Sequence record: OQ223305.1
Direction: 5' to 3' (one strand)
Length of the DNA: 64,000 bases
DNA from: Escherichia phage EO1
Shown here: positions 4,731 to 58,705 of the stretch, piece by piece
Numbering within the stretch: position 1 is the first letter of the stretch
Layout: every line of letters begins with the position of its first letter
Translations under genes and position numbers: made by a program
The notes under the pieces: model-generated
Told to the model about the DNA's origin: nothing
The model's database searches: none
The model's input: only the letters and a program-made list of their open reading frames with translations

Positions 4731-6242
4731 TTATAAATTAACTGTTTTCATTACGTAATTAAATTTTTCATCTGCGTAGCGCTGAATACGATCAATTCCG
4801 TGTTTTAAAAGATAGTTCAAATGAACGTATTTCTTTTTCGTATTAGCAGATTTTGGCTTAACACCGCAATCATCAATGAGGTCCCATACCGTTGCGATTG
4901 TTTTAGAACCATGCTTACGTAATACGCGACCTATTGTTTGCAATACAATAATTTTAGATTTAACACCGTGTGCTAAAATAACGTGATGCAGATTTTTAAC
5001 TGAAATACCAGTAGAAAATACACCATAACTAGCTACTATAATTATTCCTTTACCGTTTTCAGCTAGGGTTTTCATTACGTTGCGTGTTTCGGTATCAACT
5101 TCCCCTGATACGTAATAAACTTTATCGTATTCATTTTTAATTAAATCGAAAATAGCTTTACCGTGCGATACGTGTTTAAACATGACAAAAGCGTTTTCAT
5201 CTTTTTGTGCAAGTTTAATAGCTAATTTAGCGATCCATTTATTTCTTTTACTGAGCCCAGTAATAATTTTTATTTCTTCTTGGTAAGTTTTTCCCTTTAA
5301 TTTAGTAGTGAACTCATCGGGATAGCGAAGAAAAATACTATTAATTTTTAACTCAGTTACTTGTCCATCTTCCATTAATTTAGAAGTCGTTACTGGCTTA
5401 AATATTTCACCAAACATTCCAACATACTGCATGATATTAGCTTTGCCATCACGCAATGAACCTGATAGACCAAATTTAAACATGCAGTTATTTAAACCTG
5501 ATATGATAGATGAAATACTTTTTCCTGTAGCAAGATGGCATTCATCATTCATCATCATTCCAAACTGTGAGAACCATTCTTTCGGTTGTTTTACTACAGT
5601 TTGCCATGTACCAACAACGACTGGTGCATCATTTTTATATTTATCATCTTTTGATGCTCCGCCGCCAATTTTCTTTATCATTGCATGACTGAATAAACGA
5701 TAATCAACAAAGTCATCAGCCATCTGAGTTGTCAGAGCAGTTGTTGGAACAATGATAAGAATTTTACCTTCATAATTTTCCAAATAATAACGTGCAAGCA
5801 AAGCTTGAATTAAAGATTTACCTGCGGATGTTGGAAGATTAAGAATTCTACGACGATTAACTAATCCTTCGAACACTGCATCTTTTTGATACCAATGCGG
5901 TTCAATTCTTTTATTTCCTGAATAGATTTCTAATTTAGAAAGCCATTCATCAAAATCTTTTCTTGATAATTCTTCTTTTTCGTTAATTTGTGGGTCAATC
6001 CAGGCTTTATAGCCAAAGTTATCACAGAACTTTTTAATTTGCCCGACTAAGCCGAACGGAAGAAGGCGATTATAATCTAAAAGACGGATTCGTCCATCCC
6101 AGTGACCATATTTGTATTTCGGATTAAAACGATACCCATCAGCTTCAAAGCTAAAGAAATCACGGAGTTCATGAAATGTACTTTCTTCACAATCAATTCT
6201 CACGTGACTAAAATCATAAAAATGTACTTTAATGTCAGTCAT
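4731..6242 (-). CDS. uvsW: UvsW DNA/RNA helicase (SF2)
   Basis: 503 aa; helicase motifs (GKS Walker A, DECH box); T4 synteny. Confidence 0.85.
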   Translation of the reverse strand: MTDIKVHFYDFSHVRIDCEESTFHELRDFFSFEADGYRFNPKYKYGHWDGRIRLLDYNRLLPFGLVGQIKKFCDNFGYKAWIDPQINEKEELSRKDFDEWLSKLEIYSGNKRIEPHWYQKDAVFEGLVNRRRILNLPTSAGKSLIQALLARYYLENYEGKILIIVPTTALTTQMADDFVDYRLFSHAMIKKIGGGASKDDKYKNDAPVVVGTWQTVVKQPKEWFSQFGMMMNDECHLATGKSISSIISGLNNCMFKFGLSGSLRDGKANIMQYVGMFGEIFKPVTTSKLMEDGQVTELKINSIFLRYPDEFTTKLKGKTYQEEIKIITGLSKRNKWIAKLAIKLAQKDENAFVMFKHVSHGKAIFDLIKNEYDKVYYVSGEVDTETRNVMKTLAENGKGIIIVASYGVFSTGISVKNLHHVILAHGVKSKIIVLQTIGRVLRKHGSKTIATVWDLIDDCGVKPKSANTKKKYVHLNYLLKHGIDRIQRYADEKFNYVMKTVNL

Positions 6243-52554: not shown

Positions 52555-53094
52555 ATGAGAACATTTTTAACTGGTCCTTATCTATCCCTGATGAATGCTT
52601 TTACACACCATTCTGATGCTAGAGTAGAAGAAATTTGTAAAAACGATTATATCCCACCATTTGAAGACTTACTCAAGCAGTATTGCACACTTCGATTAGA
52701 TGGTGGCAGACAATCCGGTAAATCAACTGCTGTGACTAACTTTGCTGCTAATTGGCTGTATGATGGTGGAACAGTTATTGTTCTTTCTAATACTTCAGCT
52801 TACGCTAAAATTTCTGCAGGCCACATTAAAAAAGAATTTTCTCGTTATTCTGGCGATGATATTCGATTCCGCTTATTTACCGATTCTGTCCGTAGTTTTA
52901 TCGGTAATAAAGGAAGCAAGTTCAGAGGTTTATCGCTTTCACGAATTTTGTATATAATTGATGAGCCTGTTAAAGCTCCTGATATGGATAAAATTTACGA
53001 TATTCATATTGAAACTGTACATTACTGTTGCAATAGTAAATGCTGCATTGGTGGTATTACTCGTCCACAGTTTTTCATAATCGGAATGCAATGA
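52555..53094 (+). CDS. Small P-loop NTPase-like protein
   Basis: Walker A-like GGRQSGKST and Walker B-like ILYIIDEP; ORF 52507-53094, start tentatively Met at 52555. Confidence 0.45.
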   Translation: MRTFLTGPYLSLMNAFTHHSDARVEEICKNDYIPPFEDLLKQYCTLRLDGGRQSGKSTAVTNFAANWLYDGGTVIVLSNTSAYAKISAGHIKKEFSRYSGDDIRFRLFTDSVRSFIGNKGSKFRGLSLSRILYIIDEPVKAPDMDKIYDIHIETVHYCCNSKCCIGGITRPQFFIIGMQ

Positions 53095-53420
53095 TGACAG
53101 ACACACAGCTTTTCGAATATCTTTATTTTTCGCCAAAAACTATTAAAAATAAATTGGTGAATCATTTTGAAATTTTGGCAAATAATAACGTCTTGAGCGA
53201 ATTTTATCCTAAGCAATACAAATTACAAAAAGGCGTATTCAAAGGATGCAGAGTTTTGTGCACTGCTCCTAATGCAAGATTAATGAATAAAATTCCATAT
53301 TTTACCATGGAATTTATTGATGGACCTTTTAAAGGACTAATCACCCAAAGTTTAATGGCATATGATTCTGAGCCATTTTTAATTAAAGAACAGTCTTGGA
53401 TAAATTTATTTTCTAATTGA
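53091..53420 (+). CDS. Hypothetical protein
   Basis: ORF 53040-53420 trimmed to ATGATG at the upstream stop; 109 aa. Confidence 0.45.
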   Translation: MMTDTQLFEYLYFSPKTIKNKLVNHFEILANNNVLSEFYPKQYKLQKGVFKGCRVLCTAPNARLMNKIPYFTMEFIDGPFKGLITQSLMAYDSEPFLIKEQSWINLFSN

Positions 53421-53426
53421 GGTTAT

Positions 53427-53789
53427 ATGAAAGCATATCAAATTCTTGAAGGCACACATAAAGGTACTATTTATTTTGAAGATGGTATTCAAGCACGAAT
53501 TATTGTCTCCAAAACCTTTAAAGAGGACTCTTTTGTAGACCCAGAAATTTTCTACGGTTTGCATGCCCGTGAAATTGAAATTGAGCAACAGCCTACAGTT
53601 AAAATTGAAGGTGGTCAACACCTGAACGTTAACGTTCTGCGTCGTGAAACTCTGGAAGATGCAGTTAAGCATCCGGAAAAATATCCGCAGCTGACCATCC
53701 GTGTATCCGGTTATGCAGTTCGCTTTAACTCTCTGACTCCGGAACAGCAGCGCGACGTTATCGCTCGTACCTTTACCGAGAGTCTGTAA
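53427..53789 (+). CDS. Autonomous glycyl radical cofactor (GrcA/YfiD-like; counterpart of T4 Y06I)
   Basis: C-terminal 60-odd residues ...[61 protein letters not shown] carry the glycyl radical motif RVSGY and match E. coli GrcA from memory. Confidence 0.8.
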
Positions 53790-54010
53790 TGGCAAAGATA
53801 ATTATTGAAGGTTCTAAAGATGTGCTAAATGCTTTCGCCGAGTGGTTTAGTAATTCAGGCGAACAGCAATTTAATGAAGCATGGAATATGGGTGATATTG
53901 ATGGAATTTATCCTACGACAGAAATTTCTGCTCAGGGATATGGCATTCATGAACCTATTCGTTTAGTTGAATATGATTTAGGTACTGGTGAGGAAGTAAA
54001 ATATGATTGA
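53789..54010 (+). CDS. Hypothetical protein
   Basis: 73 aa ORF, ATGG overlap with upstream stop. Confidence 0.45.
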   Translation: MAKIIIEGSKDVLNAFAEWFSNSGEQQFNEAWNMGDIDGIYPTTEISAQGYGIHEPIRLVEYDLGTGEEVKYD

Positions 54011-54269
54011 AGATATTAAGGGTTATAAGCCACATACTGAAGAGAAAATCGGTAAAGTGAATGCTATCAAAGATGCTGAAGTTCGTTTAGGACTTATCTT
54101 TGATGCTTTATATGATGAATTCTGGGAAGCACTAGATAATTGTGAAGACTGTGAATTCGCAAAGAATTATGCTGAAAGTCTTGATCAGTTAACTATTGCT
54201 AAAACGAAACTCAAAGAAGCCAGTATGTGGGCTTGTCGTGCTGTGTTCCAACCAGAGGAAAAATATTAA
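54003..54269 (+). CDS. Hypothetical protein
   Basis: 88 aa ORF. Confidence 0.45.
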
Positions 54270-54547
54270 TGGCTCAATTAAGCGCAGGGTTTGGTTATGA
54301 GTATTATACTGCCCCTCGTCGTGCATCTGTTGCTCCTAAGAAAATTCAAAGTCTTGATGACTTCCAAGAAGTAGTCCGTAAAGCTTTCCAGGACTATGCA
54401 CGTTATCTTAAAGAAGATTCACAGGACTGTCTCGAAGAAGATGAAATTGCTTACTATACGCAGCGTCTTGAACAGCTCAAAAATCTACATGAGGTTCGTG
54501 CAGAAGTTTCAAAGTCTATGAATAAATTGATTAGATTTAAAGAATAA
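54269..54547 (+). CDS. Hypothetical protein
   Basis: ORF 54227-54547 trimmed to Met after RBS ([13 protein letters not shown]), 92 aa. Confidence 0.45.
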
Positions 54548-54549
54548 CT

Positions 54550-54579
54550 GTTTACTTTTCCTCTTGACTGTGGTATAAT
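54550..54579 (+). promoter_or_regulatory. T4-type early promoter (GTTTAC-N18-TATAAT, TG-extended) with RBS-sequestering stem
   Basis: ctGTTTACttttcctcttgactgtggTATAAT; stem cctcttgactg/cagttaagagg. Confidence 0.6.
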
Positions 54580-54606
54580 TTTTCTATCAGTTAAGAGGAG
54601 AATAAC

Positions 54607-55068
54607 ATGACTATCAATACAGAAGTTTTTATCCGTCGAAATAAGCTTCGTCGTCACTTTGAGTCGGAGTTTCGTCAAATTAACAATGAGATTCGTGAGG
54701 CATCAAAAGCAGCAGGGGTCTCATCGTTTCATCTAAAATATTCTCAGCATCTTCTTGATCGTGCAATTCAACGGGAGATTGATGAGACATATGTTTTTGA
54801 ATTATTCCACAAAATAAAAGACCATGTTTTAGAAGTTAATGAATTCCTGAGTATGCCTCCGCGTCCTGACATTGACGAGGATTTTATTGATGGGGTTGAA
54901 TATCGTCCTGGGCGTTTGGAAATTACAGATGGAAATCTTTGGCTTGGATTTACAGTTTGTAAGCCTAATGAGAAGTTCAAAAACCCGTCACTTCAATGCA
55001 GGATGGCAATTATCAACAGTCGTCGTTTACCAGGAAAGGCTTCTAAAGCAGTAATTAAAACTCAATGA
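54607..55068 (+). CDS. regB: Sequence-specific endoribonuclease RegB
   Basis: 153 aa, T4 RegB length; early promoter upstream; synteny near denV. Confidence 0.7.
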   Translation: MTINTEVFIRRNKLRRHFESEFRQINNEIREASKAAGVSSFHLKYSQHLLDRAIQREIDETYVFELFHKIKDHVLEVNEFLSMPPRPDIDEDFIDGVEYRPGRLEITDGNLWLGFTVCKPNEKFKNPSLQCRMAIINSRRLPGKASKAVIKTQ

Positions 55069-55075
55069 GGTAAGC

Positions 55076-55621
55076 ATGAGAAAAGCACTACTCGCTGGTC
55101 TATTGGCCATTTCAATGATGGCACATAGCTCCGAGCATACTTTCAGTAATGTCCAACTCGATAACATGCGTTACGCGTATCAATTCGGGGAACAATTTTC
55201 TAAGGATGGAAAATATAAAACACACAAAAATATCCACAAGAGCGGATTAGGTCATATAATGGCTGCTATTTTATGGCAAGAAAGCTCTGGCGGAGTTAAT
55301 TTAAAATCTAAACCAAAGCATCACGCCTACGGAATGTTCCAAAATTATTTGCCTACTATGCGAGCAAGAGTTAAGGAACTTGGTTATAATATGACCGATG
55401 CTGAAATAAAAAGAATGTTGAATAAACGGTCCAATTCAGCTTCCTGGGCGTACATTGAACTTTCTTATTGGTTAAATATACATAAGGGCGATATAAGAAA
55501 AGCAATATCCTCTTATAATTCGGGATGGAATGTTAAAGCAGGTTCTAAATATGCTTCTGAAGTCCTAGAAAAGGCTAATTACCTTAAAAATAATAAACTT
55601 TTGGAAATAGTAAATGACTAA
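55076..55621 (+). CDS. Secreted lytic transglycosylase-like protein (SLT domain)
   Basis: N-terminal signal peptide MRKALLAGLLAISMMAHS; SLT motifs LWQESSGG, YGMFQ, SYNSGWN. Confidence 0.6.
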   Translation: MRKALLAGLLAISMMAHSSEHTFSNVQLDNMRYAYQFGEQFSKDGKYKTHKNIHKSGLGHIMAAILWQESSGGVNLKSKPKHHAYGMFQNYLPTMRARVKELGYNMTDAEIKRMLNKRSNSASWAYIELSYWLNIHKGDIRKAISSYNSGWNVKAGSKYASEVLEKANYLKNNKLLEIVND

Positions 55622-55955
55622 AATTTTGGTTTTATGTATAGGATTAATTTCATTTTCTGCGTTAGCAGATACATCATATACTGAAATTAGAGAGTATGTA
55701 AACCGTACTGCAGCGGATTATTGCGGGAAAAATAAAGCATGCCAAGCTGAATTTGCACAGAAATTAATATATGCATATAAAGACGGAGAAAGAGATAAAT
55801 CAAGCAGATACAAAAATGATACATTGTTAAAACGATATGCTAAAAAGTGGAATACCTTAGAATGTTCAGTTGCGGAGGAGAAAGATAAAGCCGCTTGTCA
55901 TTCAATGGTTGACCGTTTAGTAGATTCTTATAATCGAGGATTGAGTACTAGATGA
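55614..55955 (+). CDS. Secreted Cys-containing protein
   Basis: Signal peptide MTKILVLCIGLISFSALA; four Cys. Confidence 0.5.
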   Translation: MTKILVLCIGLISFSALADTSYTEIREYVNRTAADYCGKNKACQAEFAQKLIYAYKDGERDKSSRYKNDTLLKRYAKKWNTLECSVAEEKDKAACHSMVDRLVDSYNRGLSTR

Positions 55956-56431
55956 TTGTAAAATATATCAAGGGCGATATTGTCGCCCTATTTCTTCAAG
56001 GTAATATTATTGCGCACGGGTGCAATTGTTTTCATACTATGGGTTCAGGTGTAGCGGGTCAATTAGCAAGAGCCTATCCCAAAATTTTAGAAATAGATAA
56101 AACTACTACCGAGTACGGTTCTCGTGATAAATTAGGCGATATGTCTATTGTTTTTAAACATAGTCCTACGGGATTTGGTATATGCTATAACCTGTATACA
56201 CAATACGAACCGGGTCCTAATCTTGATTATGGTGCTTTAGTAAACTGCATGATAGAATTAAATCTACAGGCAGAAACCCTTTTGTTTAAACCAGTAATTT
56301 ACATTCCACGCATAGGTTGCGGTATTGCTGGCGGCGATTGGGATAAGGTTTCTAAATTAATCGACATGTTTACTCCTGATATTGATTTAATAGTGGTGGA
56401 TTATGAAAGTACATTACCCGCATCCGTTTGA
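55952..56431 (+). CDS. Macro domain protein (ADP-ribose binding/processing)
   Basis: GNIIAHGCNCFHTMGSGVAGQLA and IPRIGCGIAGGDW resemble macro-domain signature motifs; 159 aa. Confidence 0.55.
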   Translation: MIVKYIKGDIVALFLQGNIIAHGCNCFHTMGSGVAGQLARAYPKILEIDKTTTEYGSRDKLGDMSIVFKHSPTGFGICYNLYTQYEPGPNLDYGALVNCMIELNLQAETLLFKPVIYIPRIGCGIAGGDWDKVSKLIDMFTPDIDLIVVDYESTLPASV

Positions 56432-56615
56432 TCCTAAAAACAAAGTGGAAATTATTCGTCAATGGGAACGCATTTGCCGTACTAAATGCCCAATTAATAG
56501 TCCACATGATGTAGATAAAGACTATATTGGAACATTCGTTGAATATACCTTTATTGATAGGAAAGGTCGTAAACAACATGTAGAAGAATATTGTTTAAAG
56601 GTTACATGGTTATGA
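56403..56615 (+). CDS. Hypothetical protein
   Basis: 70 aa ORF. Confidence 0.4.
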   Translation: MKVHYPHPFDPKNKVEIIRQWERICRTKCPINSPHDVDKDYIGTFVEYTFIDRKGRKQHVEEYCLKVTWL

Positions 56616-56818
56616 GCCAAACTAGTATTCTTAAAAATGCCCACTGCGAAAAGTGTGAATGGCCAGTTGTTTTTGCTTTATGTAATGATGAAATGGCTTG
56701 TGATTTCGATTATTGGTGCTATTGTTCCAATAAAGGATGCATCAATCATAAAGGTGAAGGATTTTATTCAGGATTTTATCCTTATCCTGATTTCGTTAAA
56801 GAAGGTAAACCGAAATGA
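56591..56818 (+). CDS. Cys-rich small protein (putative zinc-binding)
   Basis: CEKCEW...CNDEMACDFDYWCYCSNKGCINHKGE; 75 aa. Confidence 0.45.
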   Translation: MFKGYMVMSQTSILKNAHCEKCEWPVVFALCNDEMACDFDYWCYCSNKGCINHKGEGFYSGFYPYPDFVKEGKPK

Positions 56819-56988
56819 ATAGTTTTGAGTTACAATATGAAGTGTTACGTGAGCTTGATAATTTAATTGAACTCGCTGTCAATAAAGGTTTTGCCATTGG
56901 AATCGGTCAAAAAGATACTGGTCATTTAACTATGGAAATATTTAAGCAAAAGCGAATTATTTTAAAACTCCTGGAAATTAATATATGA
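56815..56988 (+). CDS. Hypothetical small protein
   Basis: 57 aa ORF below cutoff; ATGA overlaps at both ends. Confidence 0.35.
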   Translation: MNSFELQYEVLRELDNLIELAVNKGFAIGIGQKDTGHLTMEIFKQKRIILKLLEINI

Positions 56989-57170
56989 GTCTGAGTAAAG
57001 AACAAAAAGATAAATTGTTTGAGCTTATCCATGAACTTCTAGATGAGCATACAGAAGCAAACACCTTTTATGATGAATACGGCCCGCTATCTCCCGAACA
57101 GCAAGAAGAATTTGCTGATCGGTTTGATAAGAAAGAAAACGAATTAATAGCTTATGTGAATATGCTTTAA
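56985..57170 (+). CDS. Hypothetical acidic protein
   Basis: 61 aa ORF. Confidence 0.4.
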   Translation: MSLSKEQKDKLFELIHELLDEHTEANTFYDEYGPLSPEQQEEFADRFDKKENELIAYVNML

Positions 57171-57179
57171 GAAGGTGAT

Positions 57180-57761
57180 ATGGCGAGTTTAATTTTTACT
57201 TACGCAGCAATGAATGCTGGAAAATCTGCTTCTCTTTTGACTGCTGCACATAATTATAAAGAACGTGGAATGAGTGTATTAGTTCTTAAGCCTGCTATTG
57301 ATACTCGCGATTCTGTCTGTGAAGTCGTTTCTCGCATTGGAATTAAGCAGGAAGCGAATATTATTACGGATGATATGGATATTTTTGAGTTCTATAAATG
57401 GGCTGAAGCACAAAAAGATATTCATTGTGTATTTGTAGATGAAGCTCAGTTTTTAAAAACTGAACAGGTGCATCAATTAAGTCGAATTGTTGATACATAT
57501 AATGTTCCTGTTATGGCTTATGGGCTAAGGACTGATTTCGCTGGAAAATTATTTGAAGGTTCTAAAGAACTTTTGGCGATTGCAGATAAACTTATTGAAC
57601 TAAAGGCAGTTTGTCATTGTGGTAAAAAAGCTATTATGACAGCTCGATTAATGGAAGATGGAACACCAGTTAAAGAAGGTAATCAAATCTGTATTGGTGA
57701 TGAAATTTATGTTTCTTTGTGTAGAAAACATTGGAACGAATTAACTAAAAAGCTCGGTTAG
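57180..57761 (+). CDS. tk: Thymidine kinase
   Basis: 193 aa; P-loop AAMNAGKSASLL; C-terminal Zn-ribbon CxxC...CxxH; T4 Tk length. Confidence 0.9.
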   Translation: MASLIFTYAAMNAGKSASLLTAAHNYKERGMSVLVLKPAIDTRDSVCEVVSRIGIKQEANIITDDMDIFEFYKWAEAQKDIHCVFVDEAQFLKTEQVHQLSRIVDTYNVPVMAYGLRTDFAGKLFEGSKELLAIADKLIELKAVCHCGKKAIMTARLMEDGTPVKEGNQICIGDEIYVSLCRKHWNELTKKLG

Positions 57762-57770
57762 TGCAAAAGT

Positions 57771-57778
57771 TATAAATA
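57771..57778 (+). promoter_or_regulatory. Late promoter TATAAATA upstream of the rI region
   Basis: gtTATAAATAgg. Confidence 0.5.
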
Positions 57779-57803
57779 GGTTTATCTAACTAAAGGGGTA
57801 TAT

Positions 57804-58016
57804 ATGCTACAATTAACTGAAAAGCAACTTCGCAATCTTACTGTTCTTCAATTAGATGAAATTCGTAGGGAAGTTGGAAATATCATTTCAGCTTTGCGTC
57901 GAGAAGTATCACTCAACCAATCTCCGGCAGACTATACTAGATTGCGAAATTTTGAAAAATACCTTGATAAAGTTAAGGCCGTGCATCGGCATAAAGTAAA
58001 TACAGGACAAAAATGA
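57804..58016 (+). CDS. Hypothetical protein (position of T4 rI.-1)
   Basis: 70 aa ORF. Confidence 0.5.
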
Positions 58017-58028
58017 TAGGAGGCCTTT

Positions 58029-58322
58029 ATGGCCTTAAAAGCAACGGCACTATTTGCCATGCTAGGATTAGCGTTTGCTTTATCTCCACCGATTGAAGCG
58101 AATGTCGATCCTCATTTTGATAAATTTATGGAATCTGGCATTAGACATGTTTATATGCTTTTTGAAAATAAAAGCGTAGAATCATCTGAACAGTTCTATA
58201 GTTTTATGCGAACGACCTATAAAAATGACCCGTGCTCTTCCGATTTTGAATGTATAGAGCGAGGCGCGGAGATGGCACAATCATACGCTAGAATTATGAA
58301 CATTAAATTGGAGACTGAATGA
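58029..58322 (+). CDS. rI: Lysis inhibition regulator (antiholin) RI
   Basis: 97 aa; signal-anchor MALKATALFAMLGLAFALSPPIEA; T4 RI length; position after tk. Confidence 0.8.
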   Translation: MALKATALFAMLGLAFALSPPIEANVDPHFDKFMESGIRHVYMLFENKSVESSEQFYSFMRTTYKNDPCSSDFECIERGAEMAQSYARIMNIKLETE

Positions 58323-58705
58323 AATTCAGCGACTTTTCACAAAGTGGAAAACCTTCAAAGGCAGATGAATACTTAGGTTTATTAATGGCTGCACAAGCTT
58401 ATTTTCATTCTGCACATTTTGAAACTAAAAGTTATGCTAGACACAAAGCATACGATTTTATTTTCTCCGAGTTGCCAGATTTGATTGATAAATTTGGTGA
58501 GCAATATTTGGGGTATTCTGGTAGAAAATACACACCTTCAATTCCAGATGCCAGTAAACTTCCTACCGACACAATTAAAATGATTGATCGCATACTAGAC
58601 CAATCTAACAGCATTTATAAAGAAATGCCTCCAGCCATCCAAAGCACGATAGATGATATTACTGGAATGTTTTACCAGAGTAAATATCTTCTTTCCCTCG
58701 AATAA
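58319..58705 (+). CDS. Hypothetical protein (position of T4 rI.1)
   Basis: 128 aa ORF coupled to rI. Confidence 0.55.

Follow-up and report, generated by a model that had tools for sequence, protein, structure and literature searches.

The 64,000-nucleotide stretch of Escherichia phage EO1 (record OQ223305.1; hereafter the window) encodes a macrodomain protein, a diverged allelic form of its T4 ortholog, the product of tk.4, now also named adfM. The EO1 allele probably encodes a small cytoplasmic ADP-ribosyl glycohydrolase consisting of one macrodomain; this enzyme would most likely guard the replicating phage genome from DarTG2, and its predicted active site is built around a glutamine, as in Streptomyces coelicolor SCO6735. 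The feature is genuine, and the literature already describes it as T4 Tk.4/AdfM; the reading of the first-pass annotation, which had proposed a macrodomain protein from the letters of the DNA, is supported. The gene and its junction with the preceding gene are located as follows.

55952..56431, + strand: coding sequence of the macrodomain protein, the T4 tk.4/adfM allele (open reading frame, Pfam Macro match, synteny and AF2 model)
55952..55955, + strand: ATGA, in which the vs stop codon overlaps the tk.4 start codon (read from the sequence)

The open reading frame has an ATG start and a product of 159 residues, in which the two motifs originally likened to macro-domain signatures, GNIIAHGCNCFHTMGSGVAGQ and IGCGIAGGDW, form residues 17–37 and 121–130, respectively. 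The start at 55952 is correct and is preferred over that of a shorter, 130-residue version used in some records, because a protein begun at the alternative, downstream start would lack H22, G23, N25 and C26, all of which are invariant. The profile comparison suggested by the first-pass annotation gives a match to Pfam Macro (PF01661) with E=1.3e-7, its 32 bits exceeding the gathering score of 22; it covers positions 2–117 of the 118-position profile, nearly end to end, and is far beyond chance. An AlphaFold2 model calculated with 103 homologs has a mean pLDDT of 94.3 and a pTM of 0.89, and the top Foldseek structures for this model are TARG1, Poa1p, BT1257 and DarG. The closest solved structures by sequence are those of Bacteroides BT1257, yeast Poa1p, Streptomyces SCO6735, Mycobacterium tuberculosis DarG and human TARG1. 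The profile, structure-prediction and fold-search results thus all confirm a macro fold, and the outcome that the first-pass annotation had named as refuting, a non-macro fold from profile search or structure prediction, did not occur. Taken together, these results place the EO1 protein in the TARG1/DarG/Poa1p/SCO6735 structural class, which the study of SCO6735 names the ALC1-like class (PMC9411070).

Existing annotations describe the same protein in other terms. It matches PHROG 335 ('phosphatase') with E=1.2e-71, and the RefSeq record of Shigella phage Sf21 labels the gene 'phosphatase; macro domain-containing protein, pfam01661'. DarG provides both the best NCBIfam and the best PADLOC model, each far under its full-length cutoff because the macrodomain portion alone aligns. 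By tblastn, 2,789 of 50,697 phage records contain a homolog; among 1.84 billion cluster representatives (clusters at 50% identity), 6,116 relatives reach E≤1e-3. Some relatives form the N- or C-terminal part of proteins of 200–350 residues (for example, 350 and 321 residues), which may be fusions with other domains.

The EO1 window belongs to a T4-like phage approximately 99% identical to Sf21, and the 2.8-kb stretch around tk.4 is approximately 99% identical in Sf21, in the BASEL Escherichia phage WilhelmHis (99.1%, with this allele of the gene included) and in many further Tequatroviruses. The macrodomain gene lies between vs and tk.3, the slot that tk.4 occupies in T4. T4 Tk.4 (NP_049723, 155 residues, 'phosphatase; contains A1pp phosphatase motif') aligns gap-free with the EO1 protein along 155 residues (58% identity, E=1e-70), and both proteins carry H22, N25, Q84 and the loop 2 glycines G122 and G124. 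The EO1 allele differs from T4 Tk.4 by a four-residue C-terminal extension, by an overlap with the tk.3 reading frame that involves its final 29 nt, compared with 4 nt in T4, and by the sequence of loop 2, which reads GCGIAGGDW in EO1 and GAGIGKGNW in T4.

Orthology with T4 tk.4 connects the EO1 gene to published genetics. T4 lacking adfA and adfN is still resistant to DarTG2, from which a further factor had been predicted; DarTG2 activity requires chloramphenicol at sub-MIC levels (PMC11825919). In a 2025 preprint, tk.4 was the sole T4 hit of a HIDEN-SEQ screen on a DarTG2 host, and its clean knockout made T4 sensitive to DarTG2; the gene was renamed adfM (anti-DarT factor Macrodomain), a structural likeness to M. 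tuberculosis DarG was noted and enzymatic removal of ADP-ribose from DNA was proposed, by inference only (bioRxiv 10.1101/2025.11.20.689424). Plating on DarTG-positive hosts, put forward by the first-pass annotation, has therefore already been carried out by others on the T4 ortholog, and the idea that a phage macrodomain might reverse DarT-type defence ADP-ribosylation matches these genetics. According to published data, the Tk.4 protein is also detected in T2-infected cells.

The predicted active site is formed by three conserved elements.

56015..56059, + strand: loop 1, the catalytic-loop motif H22-G-C-N25-C-F-H-T-M-G-S-G-V-A-G36 (invariance among homologs, SCO6735 alignment)
56201..56203, + strand: codon CAA of Gln84, the predicted key catalytic residue, in N80-x-Y82-T83-Q84 (invariance, SCO6735/TARG1 alignment)
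56306..56341, + strand: loop 2 (phosphate-binding), P119-R-I-G-C-G-I-A-G-G-D-W130 (conservation, SCO6735 alignment)

An alignment of 103 homologs, 38–97% identical to the EO1 query, shows no variation at twelve residues (H22, G23, N25, C26, G33, A35, D49, N80, Y82, Q84, P119 and W130). Q84, N25 and Y82 are also invariant in a 136-sequence sample consisting of the EO1 query and 135 further cluster representatives, so that the glutamine is present in 103/103 and 136/136 sequences; H22 is kept in 103/103 and 131/136 and G124 in 102/103 and 135/136, and the loop 2 glycines G122, G124, G127 and G128 are at least 90% conserved among the 103 homologs. In the alignment from a profile search of the protein data bank, Q84 corresponds to SCO6735 Gln85 and to TARG1 Lys84, N25 to SCO6735 Asn27, H22 to His24 and G124 to Gly128, the SCO6735 chain numbering, with its 20-residue tag offset, matching the published residue numbers (PMC9411070). 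HGCNC thus aligns to SCO6735 H24-V25-C26-N27, and the PRIGCGIAGGDW loop to the near-identical PRIGCGLAGGTW of SCO6735. SCO6735 strips thymidine-linked ADP-ribose from DNA and guards against DarT; its Gln85 corresponds to DarG Lys80 and TARG1 Lys84, and both Q85A and the Asn27 mutant are inactive (PMC9411070). This alignment, combined with the published residue roles, indicates that the Tequatrovirus AdfM family has an SCO6735-type (Gln) active site, not the Lys type of DarG2 or PhiKZ AdfM.

SCO6735 (PDB 5E3B) and Bacteroides BT1257 (2AFC/2FG1) are orphan Gln-type macrodomains approximately 26–29% identical to the EO1 protein, which has the Gln, Asn, His and loop Gly of the SCO6735-type catalytic site. 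Both differ from the phage family profile by a 5–6 residue insertion in the loop after the glutamine. SCO6735 Lys89 and Lys94, located in an extended mobile loop and reported to aid action on or binding to DNA (PMC9411070), have no counterparts in the phage family, which also has Gly23 where SCO6735 has Val25.

Comparison with the DarG2 antitoxin macrodomain (Thermus aquaticus, 5M31/5M3E; M. tuberculosis, 5M3I) shows a catalytic Lys80 in place of Gln84, and DarG has in addition a C-terminal DarT-binding domain that is absent from the single-domain EO1 protein. The NCBIfam DarG model NF048014 scores 27.7 bits (cutoff 250) over positions 2–142 of 338, and no darT lies beside the EO1 gene, which has vs.1, vs, tk.3 and small phage reading frames around it. 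Identification of the EO1 protein as a DarG antitoxin was rejected on these grounds: scores far under the cutoffs and the lack of the Lys, of the C-terminal domain and of an adjacent darT. A chromosomal homolog in Pelagimonas, at the one locus inspected, likewise stands alone among housekeeping genes with no darT nearby, which fits, as weak evidence, an origin in orphan macrodomains and not in DarG2.

PhiKZ gp104 AdfM, from a chimallivirus, is like T4 AdfM a phage single macrodomain that counters DarTG2; it takes thymidine-linked ADP-ribose off an oligonucleotide in vitro with an N23/K78 active site (Cell Rep 2026, PMC13309987), and it is imported into the phage nucleus and expressed late (PMC13309987). 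BLASTP between PhiKZ AdfM and the EO1 family finds essentially nothing, and hhalign relates the two with a probability of 96% at 22% identity; since the hhalign register around the catalytic residue is of low confidence, it was left out of the comparison with K78. Matched by motif, the Asn is common to both and the TK of PhiKZ AdfM stands against the TQ of the EO1 family. The two are remote homologs only, their identity was ruled out, and PhiKZ AdfM is a separate lineage sharing the same name. Among eukaryotic members of the ALC1-like class, human TARG1/OARD1 (4J5R; profile E=3e-16) has a Lys84/Asp125 dyad that is replaced by Gln84/Ala126 in the EO1 protein. Yeast Poa1p (6LFQ; E=1e-14) was aligned at the residues of its mutant structures: H22 corresponds to H23, S30 is conservatively matched by T29 and the position of F152 is taken by A126.

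A mechanism that would unite these observations starts from expression of tk.4 within the regB–vs.1–vs–tk.4 gene string. DarT2 attaches ADP-ribose to thymidines of single-stranded DNA and blocks replication, and the AdfM-type phage enzyme would cleave the ADP-ribose off the DNA again. Catalysis would fall to the invariant Gln84, which Asn25 would position, as described for SCO6735, and not to a Lys as in DarG, TARG1 and PhiKZ AdfM. The EO1 allele, which retains every family-invariant pocket residue, would have the same activity as T4 Tk.4. Several points weigh against this explanation: the allele is only 58% identical to the T4 protein, which was itself tested genetically, in a preprint; and the DarG Lys, the DarT-binding domain and the counterparts of SCO6735 Lys89/Lys94 are all missing from the EO1 protein, whose post-Gln loop is shorter.

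Divergence from T4 is concentrated in tk.4, as seen from the protein identities to T4 along the locus and from the DNA segment concerned.

regB protein: 99% identical to T4
vs.1 protein: 100% identical to T4
vs protein: 97% identical to T4
Tk.4 protein (the EO1 macrodomain): 58% identical to T4
tk.3 protein: 91% identical to T4
tk protein: 99.5% identical to T4
56081..56430, + strand: segment strongly diverged from T4, the putative allele cassette (identities of 60-nt blocks)

DNA identity to T4 is 90–100% (mostly 97–100%) up to the tk.4 start, 83–85% in the first ~130 nt of the gene and 43–57% in the 60-nt blocks of 56081..56430, save one block of 73% that holds the catalytic motif; it is back at 97% by 56488, within tk.3. 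Codons for the same amino acid are identical to those of T4 in 75% of cases (27/36) over codons 1–45 and in 46% (23/50) afterwards (Fisher p=0.008), a contrast that suggests a recombination breakpoint inside tk.4 rather than purifying selection alone. The putative breakpoints would lie near codon 45 and where tk.4 meets tk.3. Because the protein is 58% identical to T4 between flanking proteins at 91–100%, EO1 tk.4 looks like a swapped cassette. Copies at least 90% identical to the EO1 allele occur in 312 phage records, intermediates lie at 60–82% identity to EO1 and the T4/T6 type at 57–58%. Natural Tequatroviruses hold at least two very different alleles at the tk.4 slot, probably exchanged as a cassette.

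The interval between tk.3 and tk (56606–57170, + strand) is also unlike that of T4. A Phage_zn_bind reading frame (56606–56818) and a 57-residue reading frame (56815–56988) have no tblastn match in the T4 locus, a DUF7438 reading frame (56985–57170) is only 54% identical to T4 tk.2 (5535–5717 of the T4 locus sequence) and T4 tk.1 has no match among the reading frames of the EO1 window. Together, tk.4 and the tk.3–tk interval form a variable island between the conserved vs and tk.

The extent of this divergence bears on whether the protein acts mainly by binding and blocking the DarT2 toxin, as an antitoxin mimic for which catalysis is secondary or dispensable. Divergence of 58%-identical proteins within a backbone of 91–100% is more easily explained by tracking a variable partner than by cutting a fixed bond, and ICP1 AdfB does counter DarT through direct binding. 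The catalytically dead SCO6735 Q85A, moreover, still inhibits DarT in vitro by binding, and does so more than DarG K80A or TARG1 K84A (PMC9411070). However, no DarG-like C-terminal toxin-binding domain is found in the EO1 protein, and the pocket residues H22, N25 and Q84 and the Gly-rich loops are kept across hundreds of divergent homologs, which points to selection for catalysis or for binding of ADP-ribose. We consider a primarily toxin-binding role unlikely.

Still more improbable is a main substrate other than DNA, either protein or RNA modified by other toxins or defence ADP-ribosyltransferases, or the phage's own Alt, ModA and ModB marks. T-even phages do have three ADP-ribosyltransferases, but the link to their marks drawn by the first-pass annotation finds no support: the Alt, ModA and ModB modifications are Arg-linked, and macrodomains of this class are not known to accept or remove Arg-linked marks. 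TARG1 and SCO6735 handle protein as well as DNA (PMC9411070), and RNA ADP-ribosylation, with enzymes reversing it, is described in bacteria (PMC11833690); in the T4 screen, however, DarTG2 alone gave a tk.4 phenotype (bioRxiv 10.1101/2025.11.20.689424).

Least probable is a Poa1p-like small-molecule enzyme, an ADP-ribose-1''-phosphate phosphatase or O-acetyl-ADP-ribose deacetylase acting on NAD-derived metabolites and not on modified DNA. Against it, the 'phosphatase' label is an old transfer of the A1pp domain name with no measured activity behind it, and weak A1pp phosphatase activity is a side reaction of many macrodomains. Poa1p F152 is, moreover, Ala126 in the EO1 protein, and in T4 the knockout has an effect specific to DarTG2, which modifies DNA (bioRxiv 10.1101/2025.11.20.689424).

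The genomic setting of tk.4 is an early-gene string. regB, vs.1, vs, tk.4 and tk.3 lie on one strand, tightly packed or overlapping, and the ATGA junction suggests co-transcription and translational coupling of tk.4 with vs. A scan for sigma-70 promoters shows no enrichment (20 sites compared with 22.5 ± 5 in shuffled sequences), the sole plausible sigma-70-like site being that at 54551–54579, upstream of regB, with 10/12 matches and a TG. An Rfam scan of 53000–58500 matched no family.

The macrodomain gene had also been described as lying next to secreted proteins. As a description this holds, in that the products of vs.1 (55076..55621, + strand; 181 residues) and vs (55614..55955, + strand) start with K/R and then a hydrophobic stretch (12-residue mean hydropathy of 2.3 and 2.7), N-termini that appear signal-peptide-like as judged from hydropathy alone; a functional tie to the macrodomain was not found, and relative to it vs.1 and vs are merely co-located early genes. 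EO1 vs.1, 100% identical to T4 Vs.1 and hypothetical in most records, contains a Pfam SLT lytic-transglycosylase domain (1.4e-5, above the cutoff). The vs product, annotated as 'valyl-tRNA synthetase modifier', has the signal-like start MTKILVLCIGLISFSALA and no Pfam match, and such a start is odd for the supposed modifier of a cytoplasmic enzyme; in minimal medium, HIDEN-SEQ found vs to be more depleted than any other T4 gene (bioRxiv 10.1101/2025.11.20.689424).

Farther upstream, vs.6 (53427–53789, + strand) encodes a GrcA-like autonomous glycyl-radical cofactor with a ...RVSGYAVRF... motif, and vs.4 (54003–54269, + strand; 88 residues), 1.7 kb upstream of tk.4, matches Pfam Acb2_Tad1_hairpin at 7e-20. 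By this match vs.4 is the homolog of the Acb2 anti-CBASS signal sponge, so that, with tk.4, the early-gene string would hold at least two counter-defence genes.

Within tk.4 itself, 20 nt into the gene, a strong GC-rich hairpin AGGGCGATATTGTCGCCCT (55971–55989, both strands; about −13 kcal/mol) precedes a T-rich run. The stem-loop is identical in T4 and the run differs; the hairpin could be an attenuator, an RNA-stability element or a by-product of the conserved IKGDIVAL codons. A pattern resembling a MotA-box middle promoter, TGCTTTA-N12-TAGAAT (56233–56258, + strand), is not matched anywhere in the 8-kb T4 locus and was dropped from the feature for this reason; in the window as a whole, this pattern is present 9 times compared with 2.4 expected. 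Opposite-strand reading frames (for example, 56370..56579) lie wholly within conserved + strand genes and were judged spurious from the list of reading frames.

A broader reading, which we hold to be possible but rather doubtful, is that the tk.4/adfM slot carries deeply diverged, recombinationally exchanged alleles differing in specificity, either for DarT2 variants through toxin contact or for ADP-ribose linkages on DNA, RNA or protein, and that the Tequatrovirus family stems from orphan SCO6735/BT1257-like 'genome-protector' macrodomains, not from DarG2, and uses a lysine-independent, Gln-based chemistry. Such chemistry, if real, would be new among the phage counter-defence enzymes described so far. 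That a widespread phage gene long called 'phosphatase' encodes a counter-defence enzyme against DNA ADP-ribosylation is a discovery already made for T4, and the T4 phenotype should not be assigned to every 'Tk.4' by name. What the EO1 window newly contributes is modest, namely, a diverged allele and a Gln-type active site. The latter bears on the origin of the gene, on how the bond is cleaved and on whether inhibitors or mutational logic established for DarG would carry over to the phage family.
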